Source: Promethearchaeia archaeon (GTDB lineage: Archaea; Asgardarchaeota; Lokiarchaeia; Sigyniarchaeales; SOKP01). Taken from it: a stretch of DNA of 32,000 nucleotides. The stretch lies in contig JAWOFX010000052.1 of the NCBI GenBank assembly GCA_046497275.1, positions 818-32,817 of the forward strand, read 5' to 3'. Shown piece by piece: positions 2,369-32,000 of this stretch. A program made the position numbers and the translations under genes. Below the pieces are notes generated by a model that worked only from the letters and a program-made list of their open reading frames with translations, had not been told where the DNA came from and ran no database searches. How positions within the stretch are numbered: the first letter of the stretch is position 1; every line of letters starts with the position of its first letter.

Positions 2369-4165
2369 ATGACTCACGAAGAAAGATCAGATGACTATAT
2401 AGATCAACCATGGATGGAAAATTGGCCTGAAGAGGTACCAAGGCATATCGATTATCCTGAGATTTCTCTTGGAGAATTTATAGGACAAACAGCCGAACAA
2501 TATCCAGATTCTCAAGCGATTTGGTTTGAAGGATGGCGATGTACTTATAAAGAGCTTAACCAGATGATCAACCAATTCACCACCACACTATCCAAAATGG
2601 GAATAAAAAAGGGTGATGTAATTGCGATTGATTTACCGAATACTCCGCAATTTATCATCGCATTTTATGGGATTTGTCGAATTGGTGCGGTTGCCAACCC
2701 TATAATCCCATTAAATAGATTCGTAGAAATAGTTCATCAAATAAATGATTCAAAAGCAAAAGTCTTACTAATCCTCGATTCTCTTTACGAAGAACATTTA
2801 CATGGAAAAGATCTCAGCAAAATGCCAACCTTAGAAACTATTATTATGACAGGATTAGCAGAATATCTTCCTAAAATTAAAGCCGTTCTAGGTAAACTCC
2901 TTGGTAAGATCCCATATATGAAAAAGTGGCCAACTCAAGTAGGAGATATTAAATTTTTGGAACTTCAGCACCTTTTAGAGAAAGGAACACCATTAGATGT
3001 TCCAGAAGTGAATATTGATGCTAAAAATGATACTGCTGTTCTGATTTATACAGGGGGAACCACAGGAGTTCCAAAAGGAGTTAAAACTTCACACTATAAT
3101 CTAGTGGTTAACGCAATTCAAGCAAATGAATGGAGTCAAACACAATTACCGGAGCTAAAAGAAACTCTGGGAAATGGAGGGATGTTTATTGTTCTCCCGT
3201 TGGCTCACTCTTTTGCACTTTCAATTGGAATGAATATTGCCGTTAGTAATGGATATAAAATGATTTTATTTCCTCAACCCCCCACTCCAATTTCCAAAAT
3301 GTTAAATGTTATAAAGAAGGAAGGTGCCACTTTTGGGCCGGGAGTACCAACTTTATGGAACAAAATTAATCTTGATCCAAAATCAGAAAAATATAGAGGT
3401 GAGTTAGATTCATTAGTGGCGTGTTTAAGTGGGGCTTCCGCTCTACCATTGGAAGTGAAGCAAGAATTTGAGGCAATTACCGGTTCTAGAATCATTGAAG
3501 GATATGGAATGTCTGAAACTTCTCCATTATTAACAGCTTCTCCTTTCCATAAATACAAAGAAAATACTGTTGGATTCCCTGTAAGCGACACTTATATAAA
3601 AATTGTTGATCCTGAAGAGGGGAACAAAATTTTACCTCAATGTCCAAAAGAAGATTGTTCCGAATGTGGAGTGGATGAAACCAAATATATTGGTGAGATT
3701 TGCGGAAGCGGATCCCAAGTAATGCTCGGCTATCTTAACAGACCAGAAGCGACAGAAAGAGCCTTAAGAAAGGATGAATACGGAAGAATTTGGTATTATA
3801 CAGCAGATATTGGCTGTATCGACAAGGATGGATATCTAAGAATTAAAGATAGGAAAAGAGATATGATTAAGTATAAGGGACACTCTGTATTTCCAAGAGA
3901 AGTTGAAGATCTTATCTATATGCATCCTGCAGTCAATGAAGTGGGTGTCGTTGGAGCTCCCGATCCTGAATCTGGACAAACAATAAAGGCTTATATCTCC
4001 CTCAAGGAAGAATACCAAGGAAAAATTTCTGAAGAAGAGATGATGGAATGGTGTAAAGAAAACATCTCGCCCTATAAGTATCCGAGAATCATTGAAATCA
4101 TTCCAGAATTACCTAAATCTGTGGTTGGAAAAATTCTACGTAGAGAATTACGAAAAGAAGAATAA
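2369..4165 (+). CDS. long-chain fatty acid--CoA ligase (ANL superfamily, FadD-like)
   Basis: P-loop IYTGGTTGVPKG, EGYGMSETSP, RIKDRKRDMIK, PKSVVGKILRR. Confidence 0.93.
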   Translation: MTHEERSDDYIDQPWMENWPEEVPRHIDYPEISLGEFIGQTAEQYPDSQAIWFEGWRCTYKELNQMINQFTTTLSKMGIKKGDVIAIDLPNTPQFIIAFYGICRIGAVANPIIPLNRFVEIVHQINDSKAKVLLILDSLYEEHLHGKDLSKMPTLETIIMTGLAEYLPKIKAVLGKLLGKIPYMKKWPTQVGDIKFLELQHLLEKGTPLDVPEVNIDAKNDTAVLIYTGGTTGVPKGVKTSHYNLVVNAIQANEWSQTQLPELKETLGNGGMFIVLPLAHSFALSIGMNIAVSNGYKMILFPQPPTPISKMLNVIKKEGATFGPGVPTLWNKINLDPKSEKYRGELDSLVACLSGASALPLEVKQEFEAITGSRIIEGYGMSETSPLLTASPFHKYKENTVGFPVSDTYIKIVDPEEGNKILPQCPKEDCSECGVDETKYIGEICGSGSQVMLGYLNRPEATERALRKDEYGRIWYYTADIGCIDKDGYLRIKDRKRDMIKYKGHSVFPREVEDLIYMHPAVNEVGVVGAPDPESGQTIKAYISLKEEYQGKISEEEMMEWCKENISPYKYPRIIEIIPELPKSVVGKILRRELRKEE

Positions 4166-4330
4166 AAAACCATCTTTAAAATCTTATTTTTTTATATTTT
4201 AAATTTTTTATCTCGTAATTCTATATATCTTTTAGAAATTATCTAATTGTCACCAGAAATTGAAAATATTATAATCTATAAATAAAAATTTTTAATTCAT
4301 TTTATTCCTATGATTCATTAATTCAATAAT

Positions 4331-4597
4331 ATGGTGAACTCATTGCCTGAGAAAGTACCTGATACAGAAGAAAATATGAATATTTGTAAGCAGTTTTGTG
4401 GGCCATGTCCCACTTTTAAACCTAATAACTTAAATGAGGTGGAACCCCACGCACTATTTTGCGCCAGAGGGGCATCCGAGAAACCTAAAGGAGAGATTAA
4501 AGATAATGGATGTAACTGTTTTAATTGTGGTGTATTCAAAAAGTATGGTTTAGAAGGAGGCTGGTTTTGTATTTATGGAATTGAAGGAAAAAAATAA
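4331..4597 (+). CDS. small Cys-rich protein, DUF2769-like
   Basis: VPDTEENMNIC..FCGPCPTF, LFCARG, GCNCFNCGVF, WFC; 8 Cys in 88 aa in the pattern I recognise for DUF2769. Confidence 0.7.
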   Translation: MVNSLPEKVPDTEENMNICKQFCGPCPTFKPNNLNEVEPHALFCARGASEKPKGEIKDNGCNCFNCGVFKKYGLEGGWFCIYGIEGKK

Positions 4598-4725
4598 TTT
4601 AAATTTTCACTTTTTTTTAGTTGTGCTTTTTTCTCCATTATTATTTCAATCAATTAATAACTAAGTATACTTTATTAATTTCCTTCCATTTTTTTTAGTT
4701 ATAATCTTTAAAAGTGAAAATAAAA

Positions 4726-6519
4726 ATGTCAGAAGAAATTCCAAAACCGTGGTTAGAAAATTACCCAAAAGGAGTTCAACAATCTTTAGAATATAGTTGG
4801 ATGACCTTAGGAGAGATGTTTGATAATACAGTAGTTCAATTTCCAGATTCAGAAGCAATCTTTTTCGAGGGATGGAGATGTACATACTCTGAATTAAAGG
4901 AGATGATCGATAAATTCGCAACAGCACTCGCAAAGCTTGGTGTGGGAAAAGGTGACGTGGTAGCAGTTGATATTCCTAATATCCCGCAATTCGCCATTGC
5001 ATATTATGCCACTGTAAAGTTAGGGGCAATAATAAACCCAATAATTCCATTGCATAAATTTGTTGAAATTGTATATCAAGTAAATGATGCGGATAGTAAA
5101 GTCCTAATTATATTGGATGCCCTTTATGAGGGTTATCTACAAGGAAAAGATATAAGCAAAATGGATAAACTTGAACATATTATCTTAACAAGTATAACAG
5201 AATACTTGCCAAAAATAAAAGCCGTTCTTGGAAAATTATTGAATAAAGTTCCATATATGAAAGAAAAATTATGGCCAGAGAAAGTTGGCGATATCCAATT
5301 CCATAAATTTCAGGAATTATTAGAATCTGGAACCCCTCCAAATGTTCCCAAAGTTAAAATAAATCCGAAGGAAGATGTAGGAACATTAATTTATACTGGA
5401 GGTACTACTGGAGTACCTAAAGGGGTAAAATTATCACATGCTAACTTAATATGTAATGCTGAACAAGCAGTAGAATGGTTATATGCTCAAGTACCAAAAA
5501 CAAAGGAACTAAGAGGAAAAGGTGGTTCTGGATGTGTTATTCCATTTGGACATGTATTTGGTTTATCTACTGCAATGAATTTAGGTGTGTTTTCCGGATA
5601 TAAATTGATTATGTTTCCGGCTCCTCCAGAAAAACGCTCGGATATTTTAAAACTCTTAATGAAGGAAGATGGTGTCTATATGCCTGCTGTCCCTACACTC
5701 TATAATCAGATCAATCAAGATGAAGACTCTGAAAAATATAAAGGAAAATTCGAAGCATTGGCAGCATGTTTGAGCGGTGGATCTTCACTTCCCCCCGAAG
5801 TAAAACGCAAATTTGAAGAATTAACGGGAGCTTTAATCATTGAGGGCTATGGAGCAAGTGAAACATCCCCAATTGTGACTGGAAATCTTTTTGATGTGGA
5901 AAAATATAAAATCGGTTCTCCTGGACTTCCTGTTTCTGACACATTGATTAAAATTGTTGATGTTGATGAAGGGACGAGAATGTTACCCATATGCCCTAAA
6001 ACTAATTGTGATGATTGTGAACCAGAAGAAGCGGAAAAATATATCGGAGAACTATGTGTATGCGGTCCACAGATAATGCTTGGTTATTACGGTAAACAAA
6101 AAGCTACGGAAAGAGCTTTAAGAAAAGATTCTAAAGGTCGAATATGGTATTATACTTCCGATATCGCGTGTATTGATGCAAAAGGCTTTTTACATATTAA
6201 AGATCGAAAACGAGATATGATTAAATATAAGGGCCACGGAGTCTTTCCAGCTGAAGTTGAGAATCTTATTTATCAAAATCCAGCAGTGAATGAAGTAGGT
6301 GTTGTTGGCGCTCCTCATCCCTCTGGCGTCGGAGAAACAATAAAGGCATTCATTTCCATAAAACCAGAGTATAAAGGGAAGGTTACTGAGGAAGAGATGA
6401 TGGAGTGGTGCAAAGAAAATATTTCGCCCTATAAATACCCACGAGAGATTCAATTCATCGAAGAATTACCAAAAACTCTAGTTGGAAAAATTAAACGTAG
6501 AGAACTTAAGGAAGAATAA
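4726..6519 (+). CDS. long-chain fatty acid--CoA ligase, tandem paralog of 2369-4165
   Basis: IYTGGTTGVPKG, EGYGASETSP, PKTLVGKIKRR; collinear with the first ligase. ATG at 4726 preferred over GTG at 4714. Confidence 0.93.
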   Translation: MSEEIPKPWLENYPKGVQQSLEYSWMTLGEMFDNTVVQFPDSEAIFFEGWRCTYSELKEMIDKFATALAKLGVGKGDVVAVDIPNIPQFAIAYYATVKLGAIINPIIPLHKFVEIVYQVNDADSKVLIILDALYEGYLQGKDISKMDKLEHIILTSITEYLPKIKAVLGKLLNKVPYMKEKLWPEKVGDIQFHKFQELLESGTPPNVPKVKINPKEDVGTLIYTGGTTGVPKGVKLSHANLICNAEQAVEWLYAQVPKTKELRGKGGSGCVIPFGHVFGLSTAMNLGVFSGYKLIMFPAPPEKRSDILKLLMKEDGVYMPAVPTLYNQINQDEDSEKYKGKFEALAACLSGGSSLPPEVKRKFEELTGALIIEGYGASETSPIVTGNLFDVEKYKIGSPGLPVSDTLIKIVDVDEGTRMLPICPKTNCDDCEPEEAEKYIGELCVCGPQIMLGYYGKQKATERALRKDSKGRIWYYTSDIACIDAKGFLHIKDRKRDMIKYKGHGVFPAEVENLIYQNPAVNEVGVVGAPHPSGVGETIKAFISIKPEYKGKVTEEEMMEWCKENISPYKYPREIQFIEELPKTLVGKIKRRELKEE

Positions 6520-7426: not shown

Positions 7427-7690
7427 CTAAATATTGGTTTTTCTTTTAAAAGTTAAAAGATTAATCGCTCCCTCAGGACATCTATGCCAACACACACTAC
7501 ATCCCCCACAAGAAACATTGGTTATAATAGTTACTGCTTTTCCATCACTATTAAAAGCTCTTATTTTTAATGGACAATATAAAACACATGTTCCACATGA
7601 TTTGCATTTCGATAAATCTGTTACAGCTCTAATAATAACTTGTGATAATTGTTTAATTTTATCTTGTAGAGGTTTGGACGCTTCTGGCAT
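7427..7690 (-). CDS. 2[4Fe-4S] ferredoxin-like protein
   Basis: CKSCGTCVLYCP and CGGCSVCWHRCP (two CxxCxxCxxxCP motifs). ATG at 7690 preferred over TTG at 7711. Confidence 0.85.
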   Translation of the reverse strand: MPEASKPLQDKIKQLSQVIIRAVTDLSKCKSCGTCVLYCPLKIRAFNSDGKAVTIITNVSCGGCSVCWHRCPEGAINLLTFKRKTNI

Positions 7691-7784
7691 TAGTAGTGAA
7701 CTTATTATCAAATATTTAGGATAAATTGAAAGAATGATAAAAAAAATATATTATATTAAATATACAATTGATTTTTAAAAACAT

Positions 7785-8825
7785 TTATGAAACTCGGGAG
7801 CAGATATCCTTAAATATTTTTTCCGCCTCTTTTGTATAACTTGTGATAATATCATCCACATCCAAAATATCATCGATTAAACCAGATGTCTGGCCAGCAG
7901 GGATTGCTCCGTTTTCTACATCGCCTTCTGTATAGACAATCATATAATGTTCTAAATCTTCAATATATTCATCCATCTCATATGACATTTCCTGTGTTAT
8001 TTTTTCTTGTTTTGATACCACTTCACCATGTTCCAAAGCATATTTATTCTTAAGCAATCGAATCGGACCAAATCCACCTGTGGTTAAAATCGTATCTCTT
8101 GCTGTGGCTGGAGGAATTAATTCTTTATAGTTTGGATGAAATTCACTTTGTTTAGATGCAATAAAGCGAGTTCCCATTGCTATAGCATCAGCTCCCATAG
8201 CTAATCCAGATGCTAACCCTTGTGGGCTAGAATATCCTCCACAAGTAACCAGCATTTTTTCAGGATATTTCTTAGCTACTTGTTGGGTTAGAACTAAAGT
8301 GGAAATCCCCTCATAGGATTGATGTCCCCCCCCTTCAGTTCCAGTTGCAACTATTCCATCAACATTTGATTCTACACATTTATCTGCAAGCCATAATGCT
8401 GGAGCAACATGAAAGTGATACATATCCGGGGCCTTATCCTTCCACATCGCACCTGCTTTACGTGGACTGCCAGCAGAAGTTAACCCATAAATACATTGTT
8501 CTCTGAGTCTAGGATCTTTCTTTCTCCATTCTGGAATTTTCCTTAATAAGATTTTATGATCTGTCTGTACTCTTGCTGTACGGACATTGAATCCAAATGG
8601 CTTATCGGTATGTTCAACCACGTAATCAAGTTGCTCTTTAAAATCTTTCACGGATCTCTTTCCCAACAATGTTGCATGACTCAATACACCTAAACCTCCC
8701 GCTTCTGAAGTAGCAACTGTCAATTTAGTAGTATAAAAAGGTCCCATAGGAGCGCTAAGAATTGGATATTTGATTCCAAACTTTTCAGTTATTCGTGTTT
8801 TTAACATTTGTTTCTCACATTTCAT
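7785..8825 (-). CDS. FMN-dependent nitronate monooxygenase / FabK enoyl-reductase family protein
   Basis: PILSAPMG, GTEGGGH catalytic His motif, GADAIAMGTRF, AGQTSGLI. Alternative start ATG at 8807. Confidence 0.88.
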   Translation of the reverse strand: MKCEKQMLKTRITEKFGIKYPILSAPMGPFYTTKLTVATSEAGGLGVLSHATLLGKRSVKDFKEQLDYVVEHTDKPFGFNVRTARVQTDHKILLRKIPEWRKKDPRLREQCIYGLTSAGSPRKAGAMWKDKAPDMYHFHVAPALWLADKCVESNVDGIVATGTEGGGHQSYEGISTLVLTQQVAKKYPEKMLVTCGGYSSPQGLASGLAMGADAIAMGTRFIASKQSEFHPNYKELIPPATARDTILTTGGFGPIRLLKNKYALEHGEVVSKQEKITQEMSYEMDEYIEDLEHYMIVYTEGDVENGAIPAGQTSGLIDDILDVDDIITSYTKEAEKIFKDICSRVS

Positions 8826-11245: not shown

Positions 11246-11463
11246 GGAATCAGATTTTAGAGTTTTTTCTAATAAATATAAAATAATTTTAGATTTGTAA
11301 AAAATGCTTCCTATAAGCTGAACATAGAGAAAATTTCAATAAAATAATTTTTTATCTTTTTAGATAAAGTTCAGTTTTAAAGAATTAAATATTTTCTCGT
11401 CTAATAATAATTTAATTTACATAATTATAAATTGGTGAAAAAAACAAAATGGTGATTATTTAA

Positions 11464-12723
11464 ATGCCACCTAAAGTAGGAATAATAGGTGTGGGTATTA
11501 CGCCCTTTCGAGCGAGATATTTAGATAAAACTTACTTTGAACTAGCTTATGATGCCACAAAGTTGGCTTTAGAAGATGCGAATGAAAATGATGCGAATAT
11601 CACACATAATGATTTAGAAACGACAGTTTATGGAATTTACAATGAGCTATTTGAGCGACAATTTATGCCTGATATCTTCACAAATAGTTATATAGGCATG
11701 AATGATAAACCAGGAACGAGAATTGCCAGCGGAGGGGCAACAGGCGGATATACGGTAAGAATGGCGTACGCAGAAGTGGCTTCAGGGTTGTCTGATCTGT
11801 GTCTTTGTTTAGGCTTAGAGAAATGTAATGATTGCTATGATGAGCAGACGGGTACAACAACTCCTGAGGTACTCAACGCTATTGCTTACTCTGCGGATAT
11901 GACCTATGAATATCCGATGGGTATGATGGCGGCAAGCTCTTATGTGTCAATGGTAAATGCTCATCATGATGAATTTGGTAATCCTACAGAAAAACAAATG
12001 GCGTTAGTAAGTGTAAAAAACCATGGGAATGCGATGAAGAATCCGAAAGCCCAATCCCCAATGGATATAACAGTTCAAGATGTATTAAATTCTAGAATTA
12101 TTTGTTATCCCTTCAAGATGTTAGATTGCTGTCTCTATTCTGAAGCCTCTGCTGCACTTATCTTGGCAAGTGAGGATAAAGTTAAAGAACTCGGAATTGA
12201 TAATCCGATATGGATAACGGGCGTTGGAGCAGCAAATACTGATTGCTTTATCGGAAATCGTGAAGATTTAGGAAGGTTGTATTCAAATATTAATGCTGCG
12301 AAAGCGGCATATAAAATGGCTGGACTAGATTACAATGACATAAAGAATCAAGTTGATTTGGCAGAGCTTCATGATGCATTTTCCGGGCAAGAAGTTATTA
12401 GTTATGAGGAATTAGGCTTTGTTCCGTTCGGAGAAGGTGGTCCTTGGATTGAAAGGAGTTATGAAAAGCCCGGAGAAGGGCCTTGGCTTGAAGGTGAGTT
12501 GCCTTGCTGTCCTTCTGGAGGCCTCATTGGATGTGGTCATGCAGTTGGAGCAACTGGAATAATGTCTACAGGAGAAGCTGCTTTGCAACTTAGAAATGAT
12601 GCGGGAAAACATCAAGTTGAAATTGAGAAAGGAAGGGCAATTGCACATTCAATTGGAGGTCCAGGAGCGGCATATGCGGCGATAATTGTAATGGAAAATG
12701 AGGAGGGGTTGGCGAAAAAATGA
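11464..12723 (+). CDS. SCP2-type thiolase-fold protein lacking the nucleophilic Cys
   Basis: KVGIIGVG, VKNHGNAMKNPKAQ, AELHDAFS, PSGGLIGCGHAVGATG; RIASGGATGG stands where ACASG is expected. Confidence 0.88.
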   Translation: MPPKVGIIGVGITPFRARYLDKTYFELAYDATKLALEDANENDANITHNDLETTVYGIYNELFERQFMPDIFTNSYIGMNDKPGTRIASGGATGGYTVRMAYAEVASGLSDLCLCLGLEKCNDCYDEQTGTTTPEVLNAIAYSADMTYEYPMGMMAASSYVSMVNAHHDEFGNPTEKQMALVSVKNHGNAMKNPKAQSPMDITVQDVLNSRIICYPFKMLDCCLYSEASAALILASEDKVKELGIDNPIWITGVGAANTDCFIGNREDLGRLYSNINAAKAAYKMAGLDYNDIKNQVDLAELHDAFSGQEVISYEELGFVPFGEGGPWIERSYEKPGEGPWLEGELPCCPSGGLIGCGHAVGATGIMSTGEAALQLRNDAGKHQVEIEKGRAIAHSIGGPGAAYAAIIVMENEEGLAKK

Positions 12724-13223: not shown

Positions 13224-13224
13224 A

Positions 13225-13590: not shown

Positions 13591-13596
13591 AACTAT

Positions 13597-13622
13597 TTTT
13601 TTTTTAATTTTCGCAATTTTTT
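13597..13622 (+). terminator. oligo-T terminator after thiolase-DUF35-SCP2 operon
   Basis: Long T run immediately after TAA at 13590, consistent with archaeal intrinsic termination. Confidence 0.4.
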
Positions 13623-21211: not shown

Positions 21212-21241
21212 TTTTAAAACTTCTAAAGTATTTTTTTTATA

Positions 21242-21282
21242 AGAAGGATTTCGCCCTCCTTCTCCAATATCTCTTTTTTTTA
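21242..21282 (+). terminator. stem-loop AGAAGGA-N8-TCCTTCT followed by a T tract after adh
   Basis: 7-bp stem at 21242-21248/21257-21263, T runs on both sides. Confidence 0.4.
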
Positions 21283-21590
21283 TTCTTATTTAAATCTATA
21301 AGGACCAAATTTTGACAAGGCATAAGAAAGATAGCATTTATAAAATCTGAGAAATTTATTACCGATTTAATCAATAAATAGAAAATTTATTATTGATTAC
21401 ACACAAAAAAACATATATTTATTAGTAAAAACAAATAAAATAATCATTAAGATTTATTAATATTAATAAGACCAAAATTAAAGTTACCAAAATTTATATT
21501 CAAAAATTTAAGAATATTTCAGCATTAAATTACAAACTTGAACTATATCTCAACTATGAGAATATATTCAAACCAAAATATCATACGTTT

Positions 21591-22307: not shown

Positions 22308-22344
22308 GTTAAATAAGAATAATATACACAAAAAAGTCTAAAAA

Positions 22345-23652
22345 ATGTTGAATTGGACATCTGAAGTCATAACTAATGGACTAGTAGCAATTGTAATATT
22401 CATAGCGGTATTTATCTGCTCCTCAGTCACACGTAAAAGAAAAATACGTTCGGTATTATATATAAGATTAGTTATATTTATATTGGGTATATATTCACTT
22501 TTAGAGGCTTTAGCAGATTTATTATTATTAAAAATTTTAGCTGTAGTTGCTTTTGTGCTTTTATTTCCTCTTGCTATTTTTGCCGTTATGGCAGTAAATT
22601 ATATACTTAAAGATACATACTTTTCTTTTGTTTTATTTATCCTATTTGCTACAGGACCAGTCCTTATTCTATTATCTATTCAATCAGATTCAATTATACT
22701 AGTAACTGAAGATATCTATATTTATTATACAACTATTAACTGGGCACTTATTTCCGAATTATTCTTTATAGGAGTATTTGGAATTTACTTTTTTTATTGG
22801 GGTTTGAAGACTTATTTAAACGCACCTTTCTTGATAAAAAGAGAAGCATTGATCTTTTTCATAGGTGTTTTAATGGGTTCTGTGATAACCGTCTCTTTAA
22901 ATGCGTTAGTAGTCTTTTTAAGATACATTCTTATAGTTGCTTTGATTATTGGAATTTTTGGAATAATAGTAGTCTTAGTTTCTGTAGAAAAAGAACCCAA
23001 ATTACTTTATATACTCCCATTCATAGTATATAGGATCTCAGTCAAAGATCAAGAAGGATTTCCATTATATGATCATGATTGGTCTGATTCTAGTATCAAT
23101 GAAATCCTTTTTACGGGATTTATCAATGCGGTTCAACACATGAGTAAGGAAGTAATGGATATTGGAGGTTTATTAGATATCAATATGGAAAAAGGAATTA
23201 TGGTTTTGAATCACTCAAAATTTATCACCGTTGGATTAGTAGCTTCAAAGTCTTCAAAATTACTTAGGGATTCATTAACTAAATTTACTAGAGAATTTGA
23301 AATAAAGTTTGAGTCAGAATTGAAGAACTCAATAAGAGATATGAATGCGTATAAAGGAGCTTATGAATTAATTGATAAATACTTTTCAAACTTTCCTTAT
23401 CGTATTTTTAAAAGTAGAAAACAAAAATTATTACTTTCTGGAAAATTCACCCAGATTCCTAAAGAATTAGATGAACGAATTAAAACTGTATTTCCTAACG
23501 AGAAAGAATATGAATTTATTAAATCAGAATTACTCAAAGTTCCCTTATACACATATTCTGAATTTGAGGCGCTTTATAATGAATTAAAAGAAGAGATGAA
23601 ACAAATTTCGAAAGATGAATCAAAATATTTAGATTCAAATATTGAGAATTGA
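22345..23652 (+). CDS. 7-TM membrane protein with cytoplasmic longin/roadblock-like domain
   Basis: Seven hydrophobic segments in the first ~215 aa, then ISVKDQEGFPLY..ILFTGFINAVQHMSKEV..GIMVLNHSKFITVGLVA..LTKFTREFEIKF, which has a longin-like topology. Confidence 0.6.
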   Translation: MLNWTSEVITNGLVAIVIFIAVFICSSVTRKRKIRSVLYIRLVIFILGIYSLLEALADLLLLKILAVVAFVLLFPLAIFAVMAVNYILKDTYFSFVLFILFATGPVLILLSIQSDSIILVTEDIYIYYTTINWALISELFFIGVFGIYFFYWGLKTYLNAPFLIKREALIFFIGVLMGSVITVSLNALVVFLRYILIVALIIGIFGIIVVLVSVEKEPKLLYILPFIVYRISVKDQEGFPLYDHDWSDSSINEILFTGFINAVQHMSKEVMDIGGLLDINMEKGIMVLNHSKFITVGLVASKSSKLLRDSLTKFTREFEIKFESELKNSIRDMNAYKGAYELIDKYFSNFPYRIFKSRKQKLLLSGKFTQIPKELDERIKTVFPNEKEYEFIKSELLKVPLYTYSEFEALYNELKEEMKQISKDESKYLDSNIEN

Positions 23653-23737
23653 ATTATAAATGGATTGTTAGAATATTGATTTTTAGAAGTATTTAGCCAA
23701 AATACTAAGAAAAAAAGTTAAAAAATAAAAAAATTTA

Positions 23738-24187
23738 TTATATTGGATTAAAATATTCTATATCTGTAATTTTTTTCTGTCTTCTATCCTTAAACACTGC
23801 TTCTACCCTCATCCCTTCTTTTAGCTTCTTTGGATTGCCTTCATTGATTATATGAACAAATCCAGTATCAGCACCATCTAGCTTTATTATTCCATATCCA
23901 AAAGGAGGCTTTAAAGGCATCACATCAGTTGAATGGGTAACAACGGTAAATCCCTCAACAGTTCCTTGATTTCCTACTTCAACCCATTCTTCCATCTTTT
24001 CAAAGCATTTAAAACAGACCATCTTTGGAGGAACGTAGACCTGCCCACATTTAGGACATTTTACTCCCATAATTTTATTATTTCTACCGATTTCTTCTAA
24101 AAATTTTTCAACGTAATCGCCTGCAGTGTGTTTATAGGGTACTTTAATTCTTCCTCGATAAATCTTTTTCTCTTTATCATCACTCAT
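23738..24187 (-). CDS. DUF35 Zn-ribbon/OB-fold protein
   Basis: CPKCGQVYVPPKMVCFKC and GIIKLDGADT; GAGGTGA SD supports ATG 24187. Confidence 0.9.
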   Translation of the reverse strand: MSDDKEKKIYRGRIKVPYKHTAGDYVEKFLEEIGRNNKIMGVKCPKCGQVYVPPKMVCFKCFEKMEEWVEVGNQGTVEGFTVVTHSTDVMPLKPPFGYGIIKLDGADTGFVHIINEGNPKKLKEGMRVEAVFKDRRQKKITDIEYFNPI

Positions 24188-24202
24188 AATTTTCACCTCT
24201 TT

Positions 24203-24688
24203 TTATTCCTCCTCTATGATTTCAAAATACGGGATATCACCTAAATTTCCCTCCATTTCATCCTTAAACACCGCTTTGACTCTCTGTCCTATTTTCATCT
24301 TTTCATGGTCTTTTTCATTGATGAAATGCATAGTATATGTTTCGGCACCATCTAATTGGAATAACCCATAACCATAAGGAAAAGGTCTCATCCCACCAGT
24401 AGCAGGATCGACGAAGGGATAATTAACAACCGTAAAACCCACCAAAGTTCCAACTGGTGGAACCTCGACCATATCATCTACAGTCATTTTAACTATACAT
24501 TCCGCACAAACACCTCTTGGAGGAAAATGTACTTTTCCGCATTCAGGACATTTAGTTCCAAGTAATTTTCGTTCTTTCTTCAACGTTTCGAAGAATTTCA
24601 CAGATACTTTTCCTATCGCATATTTGTAAGGAAGGTCAGTCTTCCATCTTATTTCGAAAGGTTTTTCTTTTTGATCTTTTTTTCCCAT
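24203..24688 (-). CDS. DUF35 Zn-ribbon/OB-fold protein
   Basis: CPECGKVHFPPRGVCAEC and LFQLDGAET; GAGGTGA SD supports ATG 24688. Confidence 0.9.
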   Translation of the reverse strand: MGKKDQKEKPFEIRWKTDLPYKYAIGKVSVKFFETLKKERKLLGTKCPECGKVHFPPRGVCAECIVKMTVDDMVEVPPVGTLVGFTVVNYPFVDPATGGMRPFPYGYGLFQLDGAETYTMHFINEKDHEKMKIGQRVKAVFKDEMEGNLGDIPYFEIIEEE

Positions 24689-24696
24689 TTTTTTAA

Positions 24697-25890
24697 TCAC
24701 CTCGGTGGTTCATTTCCAAAAATAGCTAATTCTGTCCATAAACTGCCTCCAAATCCCATAGCAAGTGCCCTTTCTACATCTGGGACTTGACGTTTCTCTC
24801 CTCGCCCCATTATTTGGATAGCTGCCTCAGCAAATCTTACAAGGGCAGTTGCACCAATTGGATTTGTACTTAATACACCCCCAGAAGGATTCACAGGTAA
24901 TTCCCCTCCCATCTGAGTGATTCCTTCTCGTAAGATCTCACCGCCTTTTCCTGGTTCCGCAAACCCTAATGCTTCAGTCCAAGAAAGCTCCGCCCAAGAA
25001 GTTGGTTCATAAACTTCCGCAACATCCAGATCTTTTATAGGATCTTTAATTCCGGCTTTTTTATAGGCTTTTTTCGACGCAATTGTTGCGGTTGGAAGAT
25101 CATACATTTTATCATCGCATCCAAATGTGTAATAATGAGCAGTTGCTACAGAATGAAACCATGCTGGATTATCTCGTATTTTTTTTGCTTCTTTTTCATT
25201 AGCATATATAACAGCACATGCACCTTCACTTTGAGGGCAACAATCATGAAGTCGTAGAGGATAAGATATTGTCTGAGAACTCATCACATAATCTAAAGTT
25301 ATATTAGGCATCTGAAGATGCGCAAATGGGTTGTTTGCCGCATTACTTCGATTTTTAACGGTCACCATAGCAGCGGTTTCAGGACTCACATTATATTCAT
25401 TCATATACATATTTGCCATAAGAGCCAATGGTCCGAGAGCTCCAGCAAGAGAAGGGCGCTCCCATACCGGATCAAACGCTGTTATAATCCCAGTTGTCGC
25501 ACCCCCTTCATTTAATTTTTCCCACCCGACAACTAATACTTTATCATAGACCCCCGAGGCTACATTATAATAACCTGAGATCCCTAAAGAGCTGCCGGTC
25601 GTACCGCCAGTCGCAATCTTAACCACAGGTTTCATATAACCCGGAGCCGCATCAATTCCACACCACATTTCAGAGAAATTAATTCCTTCGAAATGATCCA
25701 TTTAGTCTTTAATATTGAAATAATATTAAATATTACCTATGAGGATGGCATCGATATCATTGGGCTCGAGTTGAGCATCATCTAAAGCCATCTTTACTGC
25801 CTCATAAATCATTTCTGGGATATTCACATCTCTTCTTTTACTTCTAAATTTAGTTTGGCCGATTCCAACTATACCAACGTTCTCCGGCAT
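24697..25890 (-). CDS. Ltp3-like thiolase-fold (aldolase-type) protein interrupted by a 30-nt in-frame insert; 387 aa if the insert is removed
   Basis: ATG 25890 overlaps the upstream TAA (TAATG) and has SD GGAGGTGA. It reads MPENVGIVGIGQTKFRSKRRDV...DIDAILIGN, then 10 extra codons including two TAA, then continues in the same frame as MDHFEGI...AEVYEP...SGGVLSTNPIG. Confidence 0.85.
25702..25731 (-). other. 30-nt hairpin insert; candidate bulge-helix-bulge (BHB-like) intron
   Basis: Sense sequence AUUUAAUAUUAUUUCAAUAUUAAAGACUAA with a 9-bp stem and 5-nt loop. Removing it restores GGT AAT ATG GAT (G-N-M-D). The insert is certain; the intron interpretation is inferred. Confidence 0.5.
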
Positions 25891-27038
25891 TATTTTTCAC
25901 CTCCAAATATTAGTACACAATTACCTTGCGAACATATTCCATTCATTCCATTCGCAAGTCCGAGTTTGGCATCTGAAATTTGATGCTTTTCAGCTTTTCC
26001 CATTAATTGTAATGCTACTTCCGCTACACGTATTAACCCATTTGCCATCGTAGGATTACTACAAAGAACTCCGCCTGAAGGATTTACCGGAATAGATCCG
26101 TCCATTTCGGTTTCACCGCTGTTAATAAAGTTTCCCCCTTCACCTTTTTCACAAAAACCTAATGCTTCATAACTCATTAACTCGTGTGCCGAAAATGCAT
26201 CATATACTTCCGCCACATCTAAATCATTCACTGGATCTGATATGCCTGCCATTTTATAAGCCTCTTTTGCGGCACCTTCCAATCCAACTAAATCCGTCAT
26301 TGTCCTATGCCCTAAATAATACGCATCAGTACAACTTGCATATCCTTTTAGCCATACGGGGGTATCTGTTAATTCTTTTGCTTTTGCTTCATTCGCTAGC
26401 AGCATTGCCACAGCTCCGTCCGAGAAAGGTGGAAAATCTAATTCTCTTAGAGGATATGCTAACATTGGTGAATGTAAAACATCTTCCATGGTGATCTCTT
26501 TTTGAAGATGAGCATAAGGATTTGATACACCATTCTTTCGGTTTTTTACTACCACTTTTGCCGCTTGCTCATCAGAAATTCCATATTTTGTCATATACAT
26601 ATTTGCCATTAGCCCAGCGGCAGAGATTTGGTCTAAACCAAGATGCCTCTGATAAAATGGGTCGAAAATGCTGTTGTTTATGAGATATTGGTCACCTTCA
26701 GACGATTTCTGATGAGATACAACGAGTACCGTATCGTATTCACCGGATAACACCCGCATAGCACCATACGCATATGCAAAAGCTCCATCCCCTGATACTC
26801 TCGATTCAGCCTTCCGAACAGATCCTACTGCATCTTGGATTGCCATATTTGCGATTGTACGACCATCATTAAAATCGTTAGAACTGGTAATAACACATCC
26901 AACATCATCATTTGTTATATTCAGCTCATCATGTAGTTTCTTTACCACTTCAAATACGAGTTCCATTATAGTTAAATCAATTTTTTCCTGTTCATACTTC
27001 GTCTGTGCGACACCACAAATTGCTACTTTACCATCCAT
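25890..27038 (-). CDS. Ltp4-like thiolase-fold protein (no catalytic Cys, His replaced by Tyr)
   Basis: VAICGVAQT, TSSNDFNDGR, ESRVSGDG, QKSSE, AEVYDAF, SGGVLCSNP; ATG 27038 preferred over GTG 27047. Confidence 0.85.
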   Translation of the reverse strand: MDGKVAICGVAQTKYEQEKIDLTIMELVFEVVKKLHDELNITNDDVGCVITSSNDFNDGRTIANMAIQDAVGSVRKAESRVSGDGAFAYAYGAMRVLSGEYDTVLVVSHQKSSEGDQYLINNSIFDPFYQRHLGLDQISAAGLMANMYMTKYGISDEQAAKVVVKNRKNGVSNPYAHLQKEITMEDVLHSPMLAYPLRELDFPPFSDGAVAMLLANEAKAKELTDTPVWLKGYASCTDAYYLGHRTMTDLVGLEGAAKEAYKMAGISDPVNDLDVAEVYDAFSAHELMSYEALGFCEKGEGGNFINSGETEMDGSIPVNPSGGVLCSNPTMANGLIRVAEVALQLMGKAEKHQISDAKLGLANGMNGICSQGNCVLIFGGEK

Positions 27039-27232
27039 TAGTATCACTTCTAATATATAATTTTTTTATGGTATTTTATTTTTAATTGGAATTTATATTA
27101 AATAATTTAATATACAATTCAGAAATATTTAAAGATTTCATCCAGATTTAATTTAAATTTGATCATATTCAATACAACACTTTCTAAATTACAAAAAAAC
27201 CTTGATTACACCCCGAAATCGCATTAAACAGA

Positions 27233-27272
27233 ATTTCTATTTTTGAATATGGGTTTTTTCATAATCGAAAAT
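27233..27272 (+). repeat. left copy of 40-bp diverged direct repeat
   Basis: ATTTCTATTTTTGAATAT (18 bp) is identical to 29583-29600; 34/40 identity overall by manual alignment. Confidence 0.7.
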
Positions 27273-27454
27273 CTTGTTTACCATCATCAGATTATATAGG
27301 TCAAAAAGCAATAATTAAACAAAAAAAGTTGGATTGAGTTAACTCGATATAATTAGAATTAAATCCAACAAAAATAAATTTTTTTTAACATGTTGAGATA
27401 GAATTAACGAAATTGAATTAACTGCTCTTAAATTCAAAAAAATTATAAATATAT

Positions 27455-28453
27455 TTATCTTTCTTTCATATATCTTCTTTTCCTTTCTAAACTATCTGGA
27501 TAACTATCAAGCATTTTATTAAAAACCCTCGCTCCTAAGCTCAATCCCCATACTGAACCATAATTTGATTCTCTATATCGGATTTCATTAAAAATCTTAA
27601 ATTTATCCTTGATATCTTTTAAAAAACCATAAGAACCAGACCAAAGCCTACTTGTTCCCGCCTCTCCATCACCATCAAAACAACCCATTAAAAATGGATA
27701 ATAATAACTCTTATCTGGAAATGATGGTAATCTAATTAAATTTGATTTATTAGGAACAACACCCCAAGATATTAAATCATTGGCCATCCGCTGATTTGCA
27801 AAATGTATCCGAAAATATTTCACTAGCACCCGTCTACCACCATGTTTTTGCCATTCTTCGTGTATATGCTTAAGTTCTTGATTTAAACTTAATAAATTTA
27901 TAAATTTATCAATTAATTCATCATCGTCAATTTTTGTTTTCAAACCGATTCTATAATAGCTTCTATAATCATCTTTTTCTTCGACTAAATAACCATCTGA
28001 ATACATAATACCTAATACATATAGTTGATCATTAGTGGTAATTATATCAAAAAAATCAGATTTTAAATCAGGATGAAAAAGTTTAGATCTCGCCTCGGAT
28101 CTAATCAAATAGTGTTCAGTCAAATATTTTTCATAATGATTGAATGCATCTAAAAGATCTCGACTTATATTACCACATTTATTACATATATATCTTGTAA
28201 CTTTATTTTTAATAGTTGAATAAGCATCTTCTGTGATATAACCTTCTTTTCCAGATTTAATCCTATGATATTTTTTGGTAATATAGTTATCGTGCATGCT
28301 TAAGAATTTAGATAATTCATCATTAGTGATTGAAATATTATGGACTCTTTCTAATTCTCTTCGAATCGCTTCTAGTAATTTGTAAGCAGAATTATTTTTC
28401 AGAATTTCATAATTTCCTCTTGGTCTACCACCACGATTTTTACTTTTTCGCAT
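27455..28453 (-). mobile_element. free-standing double-motif LAGLIDADG homing endonuclease-like protein with N-terminal extension
   Basis: YVLGIMYSDGYL and YPFLMGCFDGDGE motifs, both with acidic catalytic residues; no intein splicing motifs and no host-gene flanks seen. Confidence 0.8.
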
Positions 28454-28977
28454 TTTTACATCATTATTTTTTTTAATTTAAAAAATTAAACTAATTTGTC
28501 CCCGATGATTTTTTGATATTCGAATAATTTGATTGCGAAATCCATATACTATATCAATTAACCATCCTACATATATAGAATGAGCCTCAGAATCTTTCTT
28601 TTTTTTTCCGCATTTTTAAGTGGTGACTTTTTTGGATCAAATAGAAATTTCCAATAGAATGAATTATTAAGATATCATTAAAGGCTCAAAATTGGTTTTT
28701 CAGTCATAAACGAAGAAAAAAACTATTTAGAAAATTTAGAAACACATTTACTTTCATACTAGCAGTTTTTATCTCGAATTGGTTTCTCAAAAGTAAATCT
28801 AAGTATTTTTAATGAATTAGATTCAAAATTTAAACATATTTTTGAACTTTTGGAGGAAAAAAATTAATTTAATTTGTTATTCTTTCAATATTTATTAAAA
28901 TTCTTAGAAAAAAATCTTTATCTATAGAAATTAGTTTTATAAATATCAGAAATGCTTTTTTCCGAGTAAAGCACCGG

Positions 28978-29369
28978 TTAAAAAATATCTATCCGTTTTA
29001 AGATTTTGTAACTAAGAAATAGCAAAGGAGTTATTAAATATATCACAAAATACAATGGTGTTAATAAATCTGAGTCTGCTAGAAAGAATAATCCGACCAA
29101 CCATCCAATTATAAAAGAAATTCCCCAGGAAGACATTCTTCAATAAGATTTATTAAACCAATAAGACTTACCACACCACTTAATAAATAAAAGATCCAAA
29201 TATAATCAGAAGGAAGTAGACCAGTATTGAAAACAACCGATACAATTATTGGAATAATTGAAGGTATTATTCCCCCAAGTATTACTTCAAAAGAATGATT
29301 TAAACCTTTTTGAAATTTTTCTATTATACCATCTAATACGATTTCTGATAATAATATAGGAATTAGAGT
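28978..29369 (-). pseudogene. decayed membrane-protein gene remnant
   Basis: Hydrophobic frame (TLIPILLSEIVLDG...GLINLI) continues after a frameshift (MSSWGISFIIGW...KRIDIF*); an in-frame TGA lies just upstream and there is no start codon. Confidence 0.4.
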
Positions 29370-29582
29370 ATATCAATTTTATCGTATAATTATTTAAGAA
29401 GTGAAATCTTCATACATGTAAACTGGAAGAGTTTTTTTGATTTCAAAATTAACATTACATCTAAATTATATTAGTAAAAAAAATATATCCTCCAGAATCA
29501 CAATACATTGGATCACAGTTTATTCAATACTAAAAATATTTTGAAAGAAGCTCAGAGAGATTCTAAAACCCTACTTAATTAG

Positions 29583-29622
29583 ATTTCTATTTTTGAATAT
29601 TAGTTTTTCCAGATTAGAAAAT
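29583..29622 (+). repeat. right copy of 40-bp diverged direct repeat
   Basis: Matches 27233-27272. Confidence 0.7.
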
Positions 29623-29684
29623 TATAAATAAATTAAAATTTAAACCTATTATTATTATTGAAAAAATAGAATTTCTCCTAACAA

Positions 29685-30506
29685 ATGAATGTTGAAGATT
29701 TTGAAGATATAATATACGAAAAAGAAGATAACGGGATTTGTACGGCAACTATCAGCCGACCTGAAAGAAGAAACGCAGTCTCCTATGTGAGTTTCCTTGA
29801 AATTTATACAGTATTAGACGATATGGAACAAGATAAAACCACAAGAGTATTAATTATAACAGGAGATCCTAAGGGACGAGCATTCACCTCAGGAGGATAT
29901 TTCGAGCCTAACTTTTTTGAAAAAGTTCATAAAGATATTAGGGCAGAAATAGATTTAATGGATATAGCCCAGAAGAAAACATGTATAAAATTCTGGGAAT
30001 TTTCTAAACCTGTAATTTTTGCTATCAATGGGATGGCGATAGGAGGAGGAATTTCTATGCCTCTTTTAGGGGGAGATCTCATATATATGGCGGAAGATGC
30101 ATGGTTAGGCTTTTATTTTTCAAAAAGGGCTATCATCGGAGAATTTGGGCTGAATTTTATTCTACCTTTTTATTTAGGATTTCAAAAAGCGAAGGAAATA
30201 CTATATTTTGGGAACAAAATCTCTGCTCAAGAAGCTCTAGAATTAGGATTGGTTAATGAAGTTGTTCCAAATGATGAACTCCTTCCTTTTGCCCGAGAGC
30301 AAGCGTTAAAATTAATCCCCCCGAAAGGTCCTAGTCTCTCGATTAAATTAATGAAAAAGACATTGCATGCATATTTCAAATCAATCTTAGATCAAACGCT
30401 CGATTTAGAGAATAAAGGTCTAAGAAAAACATTTCGTTCTAAAGATTTTCATGAATCTATGAAAGCTTTAAAGGAAAAAAGAGAACCAGAATTTATTGGA
30501 AAATAA
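29685..30506 (+). CDS. enoyl-CoA hydratase/isomerase (crotonase) family protein
   Basis: ISRPERRNA, RAFTSGG, AINGMAIGGG, ISAQEALELGLVNEVVP, SKDFHES..A..EKREPEFIGK. Confidence 0.92.
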   Translation: MNVEDFEDIIYEKEDNGICTATISRPERRNAVSYVSFLEIYTVLDDMEQDKTTRVLIITGDPKGRAFTSGGYFEPNFFEKVHKDIRAEIDLMDIAQKKTCIKFWEFSKPVIFAINGMAIGGGISMPLLGGDLIYMAEDAWLGFYFSKRAIIGEFGLNFILPFYLGFQKAKEILYFGNKISAQEALELGLVNEVVPNDELLPFAREQALKLIPPKGPSLSIKLMKKTLHAYFKSILDQTLDLENKGLRKTFRSKDFHESMKALKEKREPEFIGK

Positions 30507-30773
30507 TCACTTCAAAATGATTTCTTTTTTTCTGGTTTATTCGATTATCGGTTTTTTATTAATAGGGAATTTCTATATTTTCTTTTAAAATAAAAATTCT
30601 TCTCGAATTTTGCAATATCTTAGGTCATTATTTAACGATTTTTTAAAATCCATAACTTTTTAAGAGAAAAGCTACTCATAGGTGCTATTTTTTTTAATAT
30701 TCTACAGAAAGATCAATTTTATATACGAACTTATCAATAATATTTATTACAAATTTATAAAAACTGATAAAAA

Positions 30774-32000
30774 ATGACACAAGATACAACTTCAAAATAT
30801 GCTGAAAAATTTTGGAAAAAAAATTGGGATGAAGGGCTCGAAGACTTGAGATATGAAGAGTATAATAATACGTATGTTGAATGGGTAAGCGAGACATTTA
30901 AAAAATACTCAGAAAAGGTTGCATATTCTTATTTAGGAATTGAGCATACATTTAAGGAGTTAGATGAATTTTCGAATCAATTCGCTAATATGCTTATAGA
31001 ACATGGATTTAATAAAGGGGATACAGTCGGGATTAATTTACCAAATACTCCTGAATATCTAATATCCGTTATTGGAACCCTTAAGGCGGGATGTATAGTA
31101 TCTGGAGTATCTCCTTTACTTTCTGCTGTTCAAATCCAGTATCAATTAAATGATTTAGGCGCTAATGGTCAGAAAAAAGTGTGTTTGGTTACATTAGATG
31201 CTGTGTTTGCTGGACATATTACAAAAATCGCTGATAAACTCCCAGATGTAGGAATAATCGTGACCACCAGTGTGGCAGGATTCCTTCCCGGATGGAAACG
31301 TTTCTTAGGCCAATTATTGGGAAAAGTACCTAAAGGAAAGGTAACTCCGCTCCCCGGAAAAACAGTTCTAGATTATCATAAGGATGTTTTTGCAAACTAT
31401 TCTAAGGATCCCGTGAATATTGATATAAGTCCAGATGATGTAGGATGGATACAATACACAGGAGGTACGACTGGTCCGCCTAAAGGGGCGATGCTTACTC
31501 ATCGAAATTGCGTTCATAATATGAAAGCTATTATAACCTGGTTAGGCTGGGAAGAAGGTGCGGGCGTGCTCTGTTCAGGATTTCCCATGTTTCATATAGC
31601 TGGGTTAACTGTCACAGAAGCATCTGTTGCCAGTGGATGGACTCAAATCTTAATTCCCAATCCTCGTGATACTGACCATATAATTGATGAGATGGAAGAA
31701 TATCATCCTACTAATCTCGTTAATGTTCCCTCTCTCTATCAAATGCTCATCAAAAATCCTAGATTTAGTGAGATAGATCACTCTGAATTGGGTACGTGTG
31801 TTTCTGCGGCGTCCCCCTTTCCAAAAGAATCACAAGTGGAATTAGAAAGCATTATTGGAAAAGGAAAGTTGTTGGAACTATACGGAATGACAGAAACCTC
31901 CCCCGTATCGACTATGAATCCATCATTAGGTAATAAAAAGTTAGGAACGGTTGGTATGCCATTTTTAAATGTAGATTGTAAAATTGCTGATCCAGAAACT
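30774..32000 (+). CDS. long-chain fatty acid--CoA ligase (partial, runs off the 3' edge)
   Basis: Manually translated open frame from ATG 30774: GINLPNTPEY, IQYTGGTTGPPKGAMLTH, ELYGMTETSP. It is missing from the ORF track because it has no stop inside the window. Confidence 0.92.
   Translation, partial: MTQDTTSKYAEKFWKKNWDEGLEDLRYEEYNNTYVEWVSETFKKYSEKVAYSYLGIEHTFKELDEFSNQFANMLIEHGFNKGDTVGINLPNTPEYLISVIGTLKAGCIVSGVSPLLSAVQIQYQLNDLGANGQKKVCLVTLDAVFAGHITKIADKLPDVGIIVTTSVAGFLPGWKRFLGQLLGKVPKGKVTPLPGKTVLDYHKDVFANYSKDPVNIDISPDDVGWIQYTGGTTGPPKGAMLTHRNCVHNMKAIITWLGWEEGAGVLCSGFPMFHIAGLTVTEASVASGWTQILIPNPRDTDHIIDEMEEYHPTNLVNVPSLYQMLIKNPRFSEIDHSELGTCVSAASPFPKESQVELESIIGKGKLLELYGMTETSPVSTMNPSLGNKKLGTVGMPFLNVDCKIADPET

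Follow-up and report, generated by a model that had tools for sequence, protein, structure and literature searches.

Cys-less thiolase-fold proteins in a conserved Asgard gene cluster and their possible role in the catabolism of hydrophobic acyl-CoAs

What can an archaeon do with thiolase-fold proteins that lack the thiolase cysteine and are encoded among genes for acyl-CoA metabolism? The question is raised by a 32,000-nucleotide stretch of DNA from a Promethearchaeia archaeon (assembly GCA_046497275.1, contig JAWOFX010000052.1; C105:818-32817 in our numbering), hereafter the window. An earlier reading of the sequence alone had proposed an iterative aldolytic cycle, in which the window's crotonase hydrates an acyl chain, a Cys-less thiolase-fold protein releases an aldehyde by retro-aldol cleavage, a tungsten aldehyde:ferredoxin oxidoreductase (AOR) oxidizes the aldehyde with reduction of ferredoxin and an AMP-forming ligase re-activates the acid, the whole replacing the NAD-dependent dehydrogenase and thiolase steps of β-oxidation. 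A Pfam scan of all window open reading frames (ORFs) of at least 80 aa recovered every member of the gene list on which this sequence-only reading was built: three AMP-forming ligases, one crotonase, three thiolase-fold proteins, AOR, an iron-containing alcohol dehydrogenase (Fe-ADH), a ferredoxin and two SCP2 proteins. It likewise bore out that no 3-hydroxyacyl-CoA dehydrogenase (HADH), acyl-CoA dehydrogenase (ACAD) or Cys-containing thiolase is encoded among these ORFs. Additional genes encode three DUF35 proteins, a CrtI-family flavoprotein, an FNR-like [2Fe-2S] reductase, an NMO/FabK-like flavoprotein and an LCM-type methyltransferase.

The best explanation we can offer, at a probability of roughly 0.45, is that the window belongs to a more extensive conserved Asgard cluster for the catabolism of a hydrophobic acyl-CoA that ordinary β-oxidation cannot pass, by way of a heteromeric aldol-lyase of the Ltp3/Ltp4 kind. 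The substrate would most likely be β-branched and/or unsaturated, of the isoprenoid or sterol-side-chain type. Thiolase-fold aldol-lyases have so far come from a few aerobic steroid degraders, and the Asgard module is highly conserved, present in metatranscriptomes and accompanied by partners not seen in the bacterial systems (CrtI-like, FNR-like, BKACE and SCP2 proteins). If true, an oxygen-free breakdown of branched or isoprenoid lipids would fill a gap in the recycling of archaeal and algal lipids in sediments. Such a finding would also broaden the view of lipid metabolism in the closest archaeal relatives of eukaryotes, a relevance suggested by a thiolase-DUF35-SCP2 operon that parallels eukaryotic SCPx.

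Active sites and relatives of the thiolase-fold proteins

The three proteins are ThlH (11464-12723, forward strand), ThlY1 (25890-27047, reverse strand) and ThlY2 (24697-25890, reverse strand). They were aligned with the solved thiolases 6ESQ, 7YVY and 6HSJ and with the genome's own Cys-thiolase on contig C14. All three lack the nucleophilic Cys, in agreement with the sequence-only reading: ThlH has Gly in its place (GGATGG), as does ThlY2 (TGGTTG), and ThlY1 has a three-residue deletion at the Cys loop (SG---DGA). The combination of two catalytic His and an acid/base Cys is also missing. ThlH keeps both His (HDAF, GHA), with Ala at the acid/base Cys position; in ThlY2 the HDCF His is replaced by Tyr (YEPT) and the GHP His by Asn (TNP), and ThlY1 reads YDAF/SNP at these sites. 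Judged by these residues, none of the three proteins can act as a thiolase.

The replacements in ThlY2 are strongly conserved. Neither its Tyr nor the TNP/TNA motif varies in 20 homologs (orthologs of 73-85% identity, a 44% identical protein from genome G012 and a 40% identical paralog), and ThlY1 orthologs have Y, S, F or H at the position of this Tyr. In a wider survey of 50%-identity cluster representatives, Cys-less proteins with an undeleted loop and a GH-site Asn carried Tyr in 35 of 44 cases; the deletion-type partners were degenerate (S 13, Y 6, H 6, C 6, others), and Cys-thiolases had His in 30 of 31 cases. This constancy in ThlY2, set against the variable Tyr position of ThlY1, makes ThlY2 the probable catalytic subunit and ThlY1 probably a structural partner with a degenerate site. 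ThlY1 is 80-92% identical across many Asgard metagenome-assembled genomes (MAGs).

In the characterised aldolases Sal and Ltp2, Gly occupies the nucleophile site, a catalytic Tyr is found at the position of the SCP2-thiolase HDCF His (YDCY in Sal, YDHF in Ltp2) and Gln or Tyr replaces the thiolase GHP His (PMC12329534). ThlY2 has the same combination of a small nucleophile replacement and Tyr at the HDCF His position, where ThlH has His and ThlY1 is variable. The likeness to Ltp2-ChsH2(DUF35) (PDB 6OK1) and Sal-Shy(DUF35) comprises the Cys-less thiolase fold (Gly in Sal), the Tyr base, a non-His residue at the GH site and a putative DUF35 partner. The relation in sequence is distant, however (E 1e-19 to 1e-24 against 6OK1), and the Asgard proteins are predicted to form a heteromeric pair served by stand-alone DUF35 proteins, whereas the bacterial enzymes are homodimers whose DUF35 domain is fused to a MaoC hydratase. 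Thiolase-fold aldolases serve where β-oxidation cannot proceed; tertiary carbinols are the presumed substrates of Ltp2 and Ltp3/4, and that of Sal is a secondary one.

The nearest relatives are of the Ltp3/Ltp4 type, described as a heteromeric aldol-lyase that is required for sterol side chains with a C24 branch (PMC6678751, PMC6273163). The best annotated bacterial match (~40% identity) is actinobacterial, an operon of Streptomyces clavuligerus for a tandem OB-fold/DUF35 protein, a 354-aa protein and a 388-aa protein. The latter two pass the NCBIfam models PRK07937 ('lipid-transfer protein') and PRK08313, respectively, and the operon has the YxPFSW and NPIGA motifs in common with ThlY2 and the three-residue loop deletion in common with ThlY1. 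Like the Ltp3-Ltp4/tandem-DUF35 cassette, which we take to be numbered Rv3523/Rv3522/Rv3521, the Asgard locus combines paired thiolase-fold genes with two DUF35 domains, here split over two genes, and has a ligase and a crotonase nearby (cf. fadD19 and echA19). In both, one subunit is of the Tyr type, with NPIGA, an undeleted Gly-rich loop and Tyr in place of the HDCF His, and the other is of the deletion type, with three residues missing and a degenerate site. The two nevertheless differ in several respects. The Asgard version is archaeal and its DUF35 domains are separate genes instead of one fused bacterial protein, and ThlY1 retains a segment of ~30 residues that is missing from the 354-aa Ltp4-like protein. 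The Asgard partners are CrtI-like, FNR-like, SCP2, Fe-ADH and BKACE proteins rather than Cyp125 or a carboxylase, and the host is presumably an anaerobe with a genome that lacks a carboxyltransferase.

ThlH stands apart. It is the first gene of the ThlH-DUF35a-SCP2a operon (11464-13590), in which overlapping genes join a His-keeping Cys-less thiolase fold to a free SCP2 domain; ThlH orthologs of 86-89% identity occur in related clusters, and the closest solved structure of this His-keeping type is 4YZO. DUF35a (12720-13223, forward strand) has a Cys4 zinc ribbon, an OB fold and a 4-nt overlap with the ThlH stop, and is followed by the lipid-carrier domain protein SCP2a (13162-13590, forward strand; Pfam SCP2 24.3 bits, cut-off 21.3), whose real start is probably later than the listed TTG. 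The operon resembles eukaryotic SCPx, a thiolase-SCP2 fusion acting on branched-chain and bile-acid acyl-CoAs, in pairing an HDxF thiolase fold with SCP2. Unlike SCPx it is unfused, with a DUF35 gene between the two, and has Gly for the nucleophilic Cys and Ala for the HDCF Cys.

Gene neighbourhood, RNA libraries and genome content

ThlY1 and ThlY2 form a quartet with DUF35b (24203-24700, reverse strand) and DUF35c (23738-24196, reverse strand), both with Cys4 zinc ribbons. The start codon of ThlY2 overlaps the stop of ThlY1 (TAATG), DUF35b overlaps the stop of ThlY2 by 4 nt and DUF35c is the conserved last gene. Of 151 genomes of the phylum, 22 carry the quartet, and two families account for nearly all of these: that of the window (15/25 genomes) and a second one (5/6). 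Loci of up to 40 kb around it were compared in 19 genomes, together with three metagenomic or MAG loci (L001-L003). The quartet is unbroken in all 15 loci whose contig spans it and no locus contradicts this order; two DUF35 genes, with Cys4 and 4-nt overlaps, follow ThlY1/ThlY2 in every locus that extends far enough.

In the window's family, orthologs of the crotonase and of the CrtI-like and FNR-like genes adjoin the quartet in 9 of the 10 loci whose flanks are long enough, and a Fe-ADH ortholog does so in 5 of the 10 and in L002. The other recurring neighbours are SCP2, ligases, the ThlH-DUF35-SCP2 operon, a crotonase with two catalytic Glu (ECH') and BKACE. The CrtI-family FAD oxidoreductase (14677-16227, forward strand; phytoene desaturase/carotenoid isomerase-like) always accompanies the FNR-like reductase (16127-17416, forward strand), which has a C-terminal [2Fe-2S] domain and is PaaE/GbcB-like. 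This pair (14677-17416), the most constant neighbour of the quartet in the window's family, is not accompanied by an oxygenase; it may saturate or desaturate double bonds of the isoprenoid type in an NAD(P)H-linked reaction. Locus L001, from another genus, holds a FadH-like dienoyl reductase (16075-18117; Oxidored_FMN and Pyr_redox_2), apparently split into ORFs of 533 and 116 aa; next to it are a flavodoxin-like gene and several genes for poly-ferredoxins.

The cluster continues past the window, whose right edge is the end of the contig. Here the AMP-forming acyl-CoA ligase 3 (30774-32000, forward strand; identified by Pfam) is cut after its N-terminal 409 aa, and the last 191 bases of C105 (31810-32000) are identical to the start of the reverse-complemented contig C108 (C108 14753-14943 on locus L073). 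Past this join, C108 encodes the rest of ligase 3, BKACE, a 200-aa ORF, a fourth Cys-less thiolase-like protein (473 aa), a TnpB/IS605-like 878-aa ORF and an ACAD, and further on an RNase H-like protein and a DAO-type dehydrogenase. The same gene set flanks the quartet in L001 and L003, and BKACE adjoins the quartet in L001-L003 as it does in the source genome once the contigs are joined. This ACAD gene lies ~7.4 kb beyond the window; its absence from the window is a boundary effect, as the window stops at the contig end.

Much of the cluster is represented in RNA libraries. In eight metatranscriptome runs from two salt-lake studies, 25-57% of the words of positions 17400-27100 were present, and contigs from four of these runs on positions 11400-31399 cover the ThlH operon, the CrtI/FNR pair, AOR, Fe-ADH, the quartet, the crotonase and ligase 3. 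RNA contigs are nearly absent over 21405-23405 (winged helix-turn-helix and seven-transmembrane protein genes) and over 27408-29408, a segment with a 332-aa ORF, and these bare stretches argue against mere carry-over of DNA. Single RNA contigs link DUF35b or DUF35c through to ThlY1.

The same contigs bear on the integrity of ThlY2, in which an in-frame insert of 30 nt with two TAA stops (25702-25731, reverse strand) separates exon 1 (25732-25890, 53 codons) from exon 2 (24697-25701), which holds the motifs TGGTTG, YEPTSW and TNPIGAT of this Ltp3-like, putative catalytic subunit. In the runs X5, X6 and X7, every contig that crosses ThlY2 lacks exactly 30 letters at ~25700, at all of the depth, and otherwise shows no differences over up to 2.7 kb. 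Excision of the insert joins ...ILIGN to MDHFEG... and gives a protein of 387 aa, the orthologs being 388-394 aa long. Given RNA contigs free of the insert, ThlY2 is most likely functional, and the insert most likely a spliced mini-intron, apparently of the bulge-helix-bulge type, in a protein-coding mRNA, which would leave ThlY2 intact in the message. Predicted helices place both insert junctions in 3-nt bulges; the fold of the region (minimum free energy -7.8 kcal/mol) is no more stable than that of shuffled sequences (z = -0.43), which is uninformative either way for so AT-rich a stretch. The contigs may instead come from a strain without the insert in the sampled communities. Two apparent parallels were set aside: the TAA noted inside three ThlY1 orthologs lies upstream of the start, with no internal stop by tblastn, and the two TAA stops inside an AOR paralog on contig C93 are tandem stop codons at the end of the gene, with no insert.

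The crotonase-fold protein (29685-30506, forward strand) was assigned the hydration step by the sequence-only reading, and its residues speak otherwise. In hydratases the two catalytic Glu are presumably those numbered Glu144 and Glu164 in the rat enzyme; where ECH' has them, in FELA and LETK, the window crotonase and its orthologs have Ser/Thr and Phe/Val. One Glu is kept (in GEF, PEF or AEF) and aligns with the conserved Asp of the VPDSG motif in the best PDB hit, a PaaG-like protein, an Asp that we take to be catalytic. The window crotonase is, by these alignments, probably an isomerase-type enzyme rather than a hydratase. The two-Glu ECH' is found beside the quartet in relatives and on contig C41 in the source genome.

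The claim that the dehydrogenase and thiolase steps of β-oxidation are replaced fares no better. The source genome is 98.9% complete and has 7 HADH-type genes, ~14 ACAD genes and 2 Cys-thiolase genes, so plentiful a supply that replacement is unsupported. Genome totals are 12 for AOR paralogs, 9 for SCP2 genes and 4 for BKACE genes. The carboxyltransferase family PF01039 is not represented in this 98.9%-complete genome, in which no carboxyltransferase-type (biotin-dependent) acyl-CoA carboxylase was detected.

The AOR (17985-19820, reverse strand) is of the P. furiosus type, closest to the broad-specificity AOR, matching Pfam AFOR_N (264 bits) and AFOR_C (366 bits) over its full length, with 1AOR as its best PDB match (E 3.6e-116). 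Its suggested coupling to the thiolase-fold proteins has in its favour that all parts of the iterative cycle lie within one window, that AOR and Fe-ADH (20015-21211, forward strand; Pfam, NCBIfam) adjoin the cluster in the window, in L002 and in genome G147, and that RNA contigs from the same runs cover the AOR and the thiolase operons. A phylum-wide search for AOR orthologs (at least 62% identity in the locus comparison) points the other way. An ortholog is present in 20 of the 25 other genomes of the window's family, including 6 of the 10 without a quartet, but among the 14 family genomes that have both it shares a contig with the quartet in G147 only, the two being on different contigs in the other 13; the metagenomic contig L002 also has it beside the quartet. 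In the second family none of the 6 genomes has an AOR ortholog, though 5 hold the quartet. With 12 AOR paralogs in the genome, a single AOR in 32 kb is unremarkable. The ferredoxin gene (7427-7711, reverse strand; Pfam Fer4 families, 2x[4Fe-4S] with two CxxCxxCxxxCP motifs), taken by the sequence-only reading for the AOR partner, lies ~10 kb from AOR and directly downstream, on the same strand, of the gene for the NMO/FabK-like flavoprotein (7785-8825, reverse strand; Pfam NMO; NCBIfam FabK 159 bits, below cut-off), a putative enoyl reductase. The weak co-occurrence and the position of the ferredoxin gene thus leave the coupling of AOR and ferredoxin unsupported: AOR is a variable neighbour that does not belong to the cluster's core. 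An entry module, in which Fe-ADH, AOR and the ligases would convert an alcohol by way of aldehyde and acid to a CoA ester, is at least as good a reading of these genes. Of the retro-aldol role proposed for the Cys-less proteins, the part supported by homology and residue conservation concerns the proteins themselves and mainly ThlY2; its tie to AOR and ferredoxin is not supported.

A possible route and its competitors

From the gene content, residue patterns, synteny and RNA-library presence described above we infer an activity, a complex, a substrate and an order of steps. The conserved set of ligases, ACAD, CrtI/FNR pair, crotonases, lyase, BKACE and SCP2 suggests a substrate that is hydrophobic, unsaturated and probably β-branched. 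Ligases would activate it to the CoA ester, the SCP2 proteins would carry the lipid, and ACAD, the CrtI-like/FNR-like pair and the one-acid crotonase would introduce or shift double bonds, leaving hydration to the two-Glu crotonase encoded on C41. Retro-aldol cleavage of the 3-hydroxyacyl-CoA by the lyase would then release acetyl- or propionyl-CoA and a carbonyl compound, with the ThlY2 Tyr as the likely base and with ThlY1 and ThlY2 each probably capped by one stand-alone DUF35 zinc-ribbon protein. A tertiary carbinol would yield a ketone or a β-keto acid and no aldehyde, and the adjoining BKACE could accept the β-keto acid. Fe-ADH and AOR would be a variable accessory module for the interconversion of alcohols and aldehydes, not an obligate step of a cycle.

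A number of observations weigh against an Ltp3/Ltp4-type lyase in such a route. Full-length ThlY2 (from L002) scores 386 bits on PRK08313 (NF006180), below the cut-off of 514, though this model is clearly its best hit (next-best model 264). For ThlY1 the scores are 294 bits with PRK08313 and 193 with PRK07937 (NF005924), where the cut-off is 419. The Streptomyces pair passes both models, with 713 and 550 bits. Both are nearer by sequence to archaeal thiolases and 4YZO than to Ltp2. The catalytic acids of the characterised enzymes are missing from ThlY2, which has Pro (Ala in G012) at the position of Sal Cys304 (YDCY) and Asn at that of Ltp2 Tyr344, an equivalence inferred from the spacing of +50 residues. 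To our knowledge, Ltp2 and Sal are the only thiolase-fold aldol-lyases assayed in vitro, and none of the Ltp3/Ltp4 type has been; since none has, the name 'aldol-lyase' for that type rests on actinobacterial genetics and on analogy with Ltp2 and Sal. In the second family the quartet stands alone, with the other cluster genes not alongside. As no PF01039 carboxyltransferase is present, the genome cannot supply the carboxylation known from the sitosterol and Atu routes, which leaves BKACE without an explained part. In terms of sequence, ThlY1, ThlY2 and the DUF35 proteins resemble the Ltp4/Ltp3/tandem-DUF35 cassette, and by NCBIfam cut-offs and catalytic-acid residues they are not members of it.

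Two additions to this scheme were considered and dropped. A γ-carboxylation before the lyase, as in the Atu or sitosterol routes, would call for the PF01039 carboxyltransferase that was not found. Carboxylation of a ketone ahead of BKACE was given up because the sole gene of the hydantoinase_B family is on another contig (C44), with no tie to the cluster. A fuller version of the Ltp3/Ltp4-type scheme, which we regard as unlikely in all its detail, is a carboxylase-free anaerobic Asgard route for β-methyl-branched unsaturated chains of the isoprenoid type. It would comprise activation, action of the CrtI/FNR pair and the one-acid crotonase, tertiary hydration, retro-aldol cleavage by ThlY1/ThlY2/DUF35 and recapture by BKACE, and the ThlY2 mRNA would need removal of the 30-nt mini-intron. 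An Asgard-focused literature search returned no description of such a carboxylase-free anaerobic branched-chain route, and nothing was found in the literature on Asgard BKACE or on AOR, thiolase and SCP2 in Lokiarchaeota.

Among the alternatives, the one that survives best is a single aldolytic step of the Sal/Sad type, in which a secondary 3-hydroxyacyl-CoA would be cleaved to an aldehyde, AOR would oxidize or Fe-ADH reduce the aldehyde, and a ligase would re-activate the acid. Sal provides the precedent, as it forms an aldehyde from a C5 bile-acid side chain (PMC12329534). In the Asgard loci, the Fe-ADH ortholog adjoins about half of the family clusters, AOR and Fe-ADH are mutual neighbours in the window and in G147, and there are several ligases in the cluster. 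We nonetheless consider such a step improbable: the association with AOR is weak, Fe-ADH, AOR and ligases are equally suited to the entry module, and the nearest relatives, of the Ltp3/Ltp4 type, are thought to convert tertiary carbinols to ketones.

It is less probable still that the Cys-less proteins are not lyases at all and instead serve as non-catalytic scaffolds, or as condensing or CoA-handling parts of an archaeal KT/DUF35 complex for fatty-acid or isoprenoid biosynthesis. KT/DUF35 pairs in archaea do belong to fatty-acid-synthase-like and HMG-CoA-synthase complexes, and Asgard genomes have a mean of 3.8 such pairs (bioRxiv 10.1101/2024.07.05.601840). The degenerate site of ThlY1, too, sits in a protein that is still ~80% conserved. 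The thiolase/DUF35(/HMG-CoA synthase) complexes of archaea and the KT/DUF35 fatty-acid-synthase complex of S. acidocaldarius (6ET9) have in common with the Asgard proteins an SCP2-type thiolase fold and an adjoining stand-alone DUF35 gene, and together with 4YZO and 7YVY they are the best PDB sequence matches. They differ, however, in having the Cys and both His and in their Claisen chemistry, and thiolase Claisen condensation requires the nucleophilic Cys that is missing here. Neither HMG-CoA synthase nor ketoreductase nor MaoC dehydratase is encoded in the Asgard cluster, which has no synthase, reductase or dehydratase partners, and the catabolic type of its neighbours (ligases, ACAD, BKACE and crotonases) argues against a biosynthetic complex. 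The invariant Tyr/Asn signature of ThlY2 is, moreover, common to Ltp3-like proteins.

The iterative cycle, which would be a new idea in energy metabolism and for which Sal is a bacterial precedent in being a thiolase-fold aldolase that produces an aldehyde (PMC12329534), is very unlikely, especially as a general route, since by standard biochemistry it would spend ATP to AMP on each acetyl-CoA (C2 unit) released and gain only the difference in potential between NADH and ferredoxin, and since, in addition to the evidence on AOR, ferredoxin and the crotonase, canonical HADH, ACAD and Cys-thiolase genes are plentiful, one ACAD gene belongs to the very cluster, and the conserved CrtI-like, FNR-like and BKACE genes are left without a role.

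Other genes of the window

The 332-aa ORF (27455-28453) in the bare stretch between ThlY1 and the crotonase matched no Pfam family. At the edge of the acyl-CoA cluster an N6-adenine DNA methyltransferase gene (154-2271; N6_Mtase and Eco57I-type domains) is found, with no restriction gene in the window. It is followed by two AMP-forming acyl-CoA ligases on the forward strand. Ligase 1 (2369-4165) is FadD-like, with Pfam AMP-binding and AMP-binding_C domains and, as top NCBIfam hits, long-chain-fatty-acid--CoA ligase models, all below cut-off; ligase 2 (4714-6519) was identified by Pfam and NCBIfam. The second lipid-carrier domain protein, SCP2b (17477-17884, reverse strand; Pfam SCP2 39 bits), lies between the FNR-like reductase and AOR. 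The NMO/FabK-like flavoprotein has a 72% identical ortholog in the cluster of genome G057.

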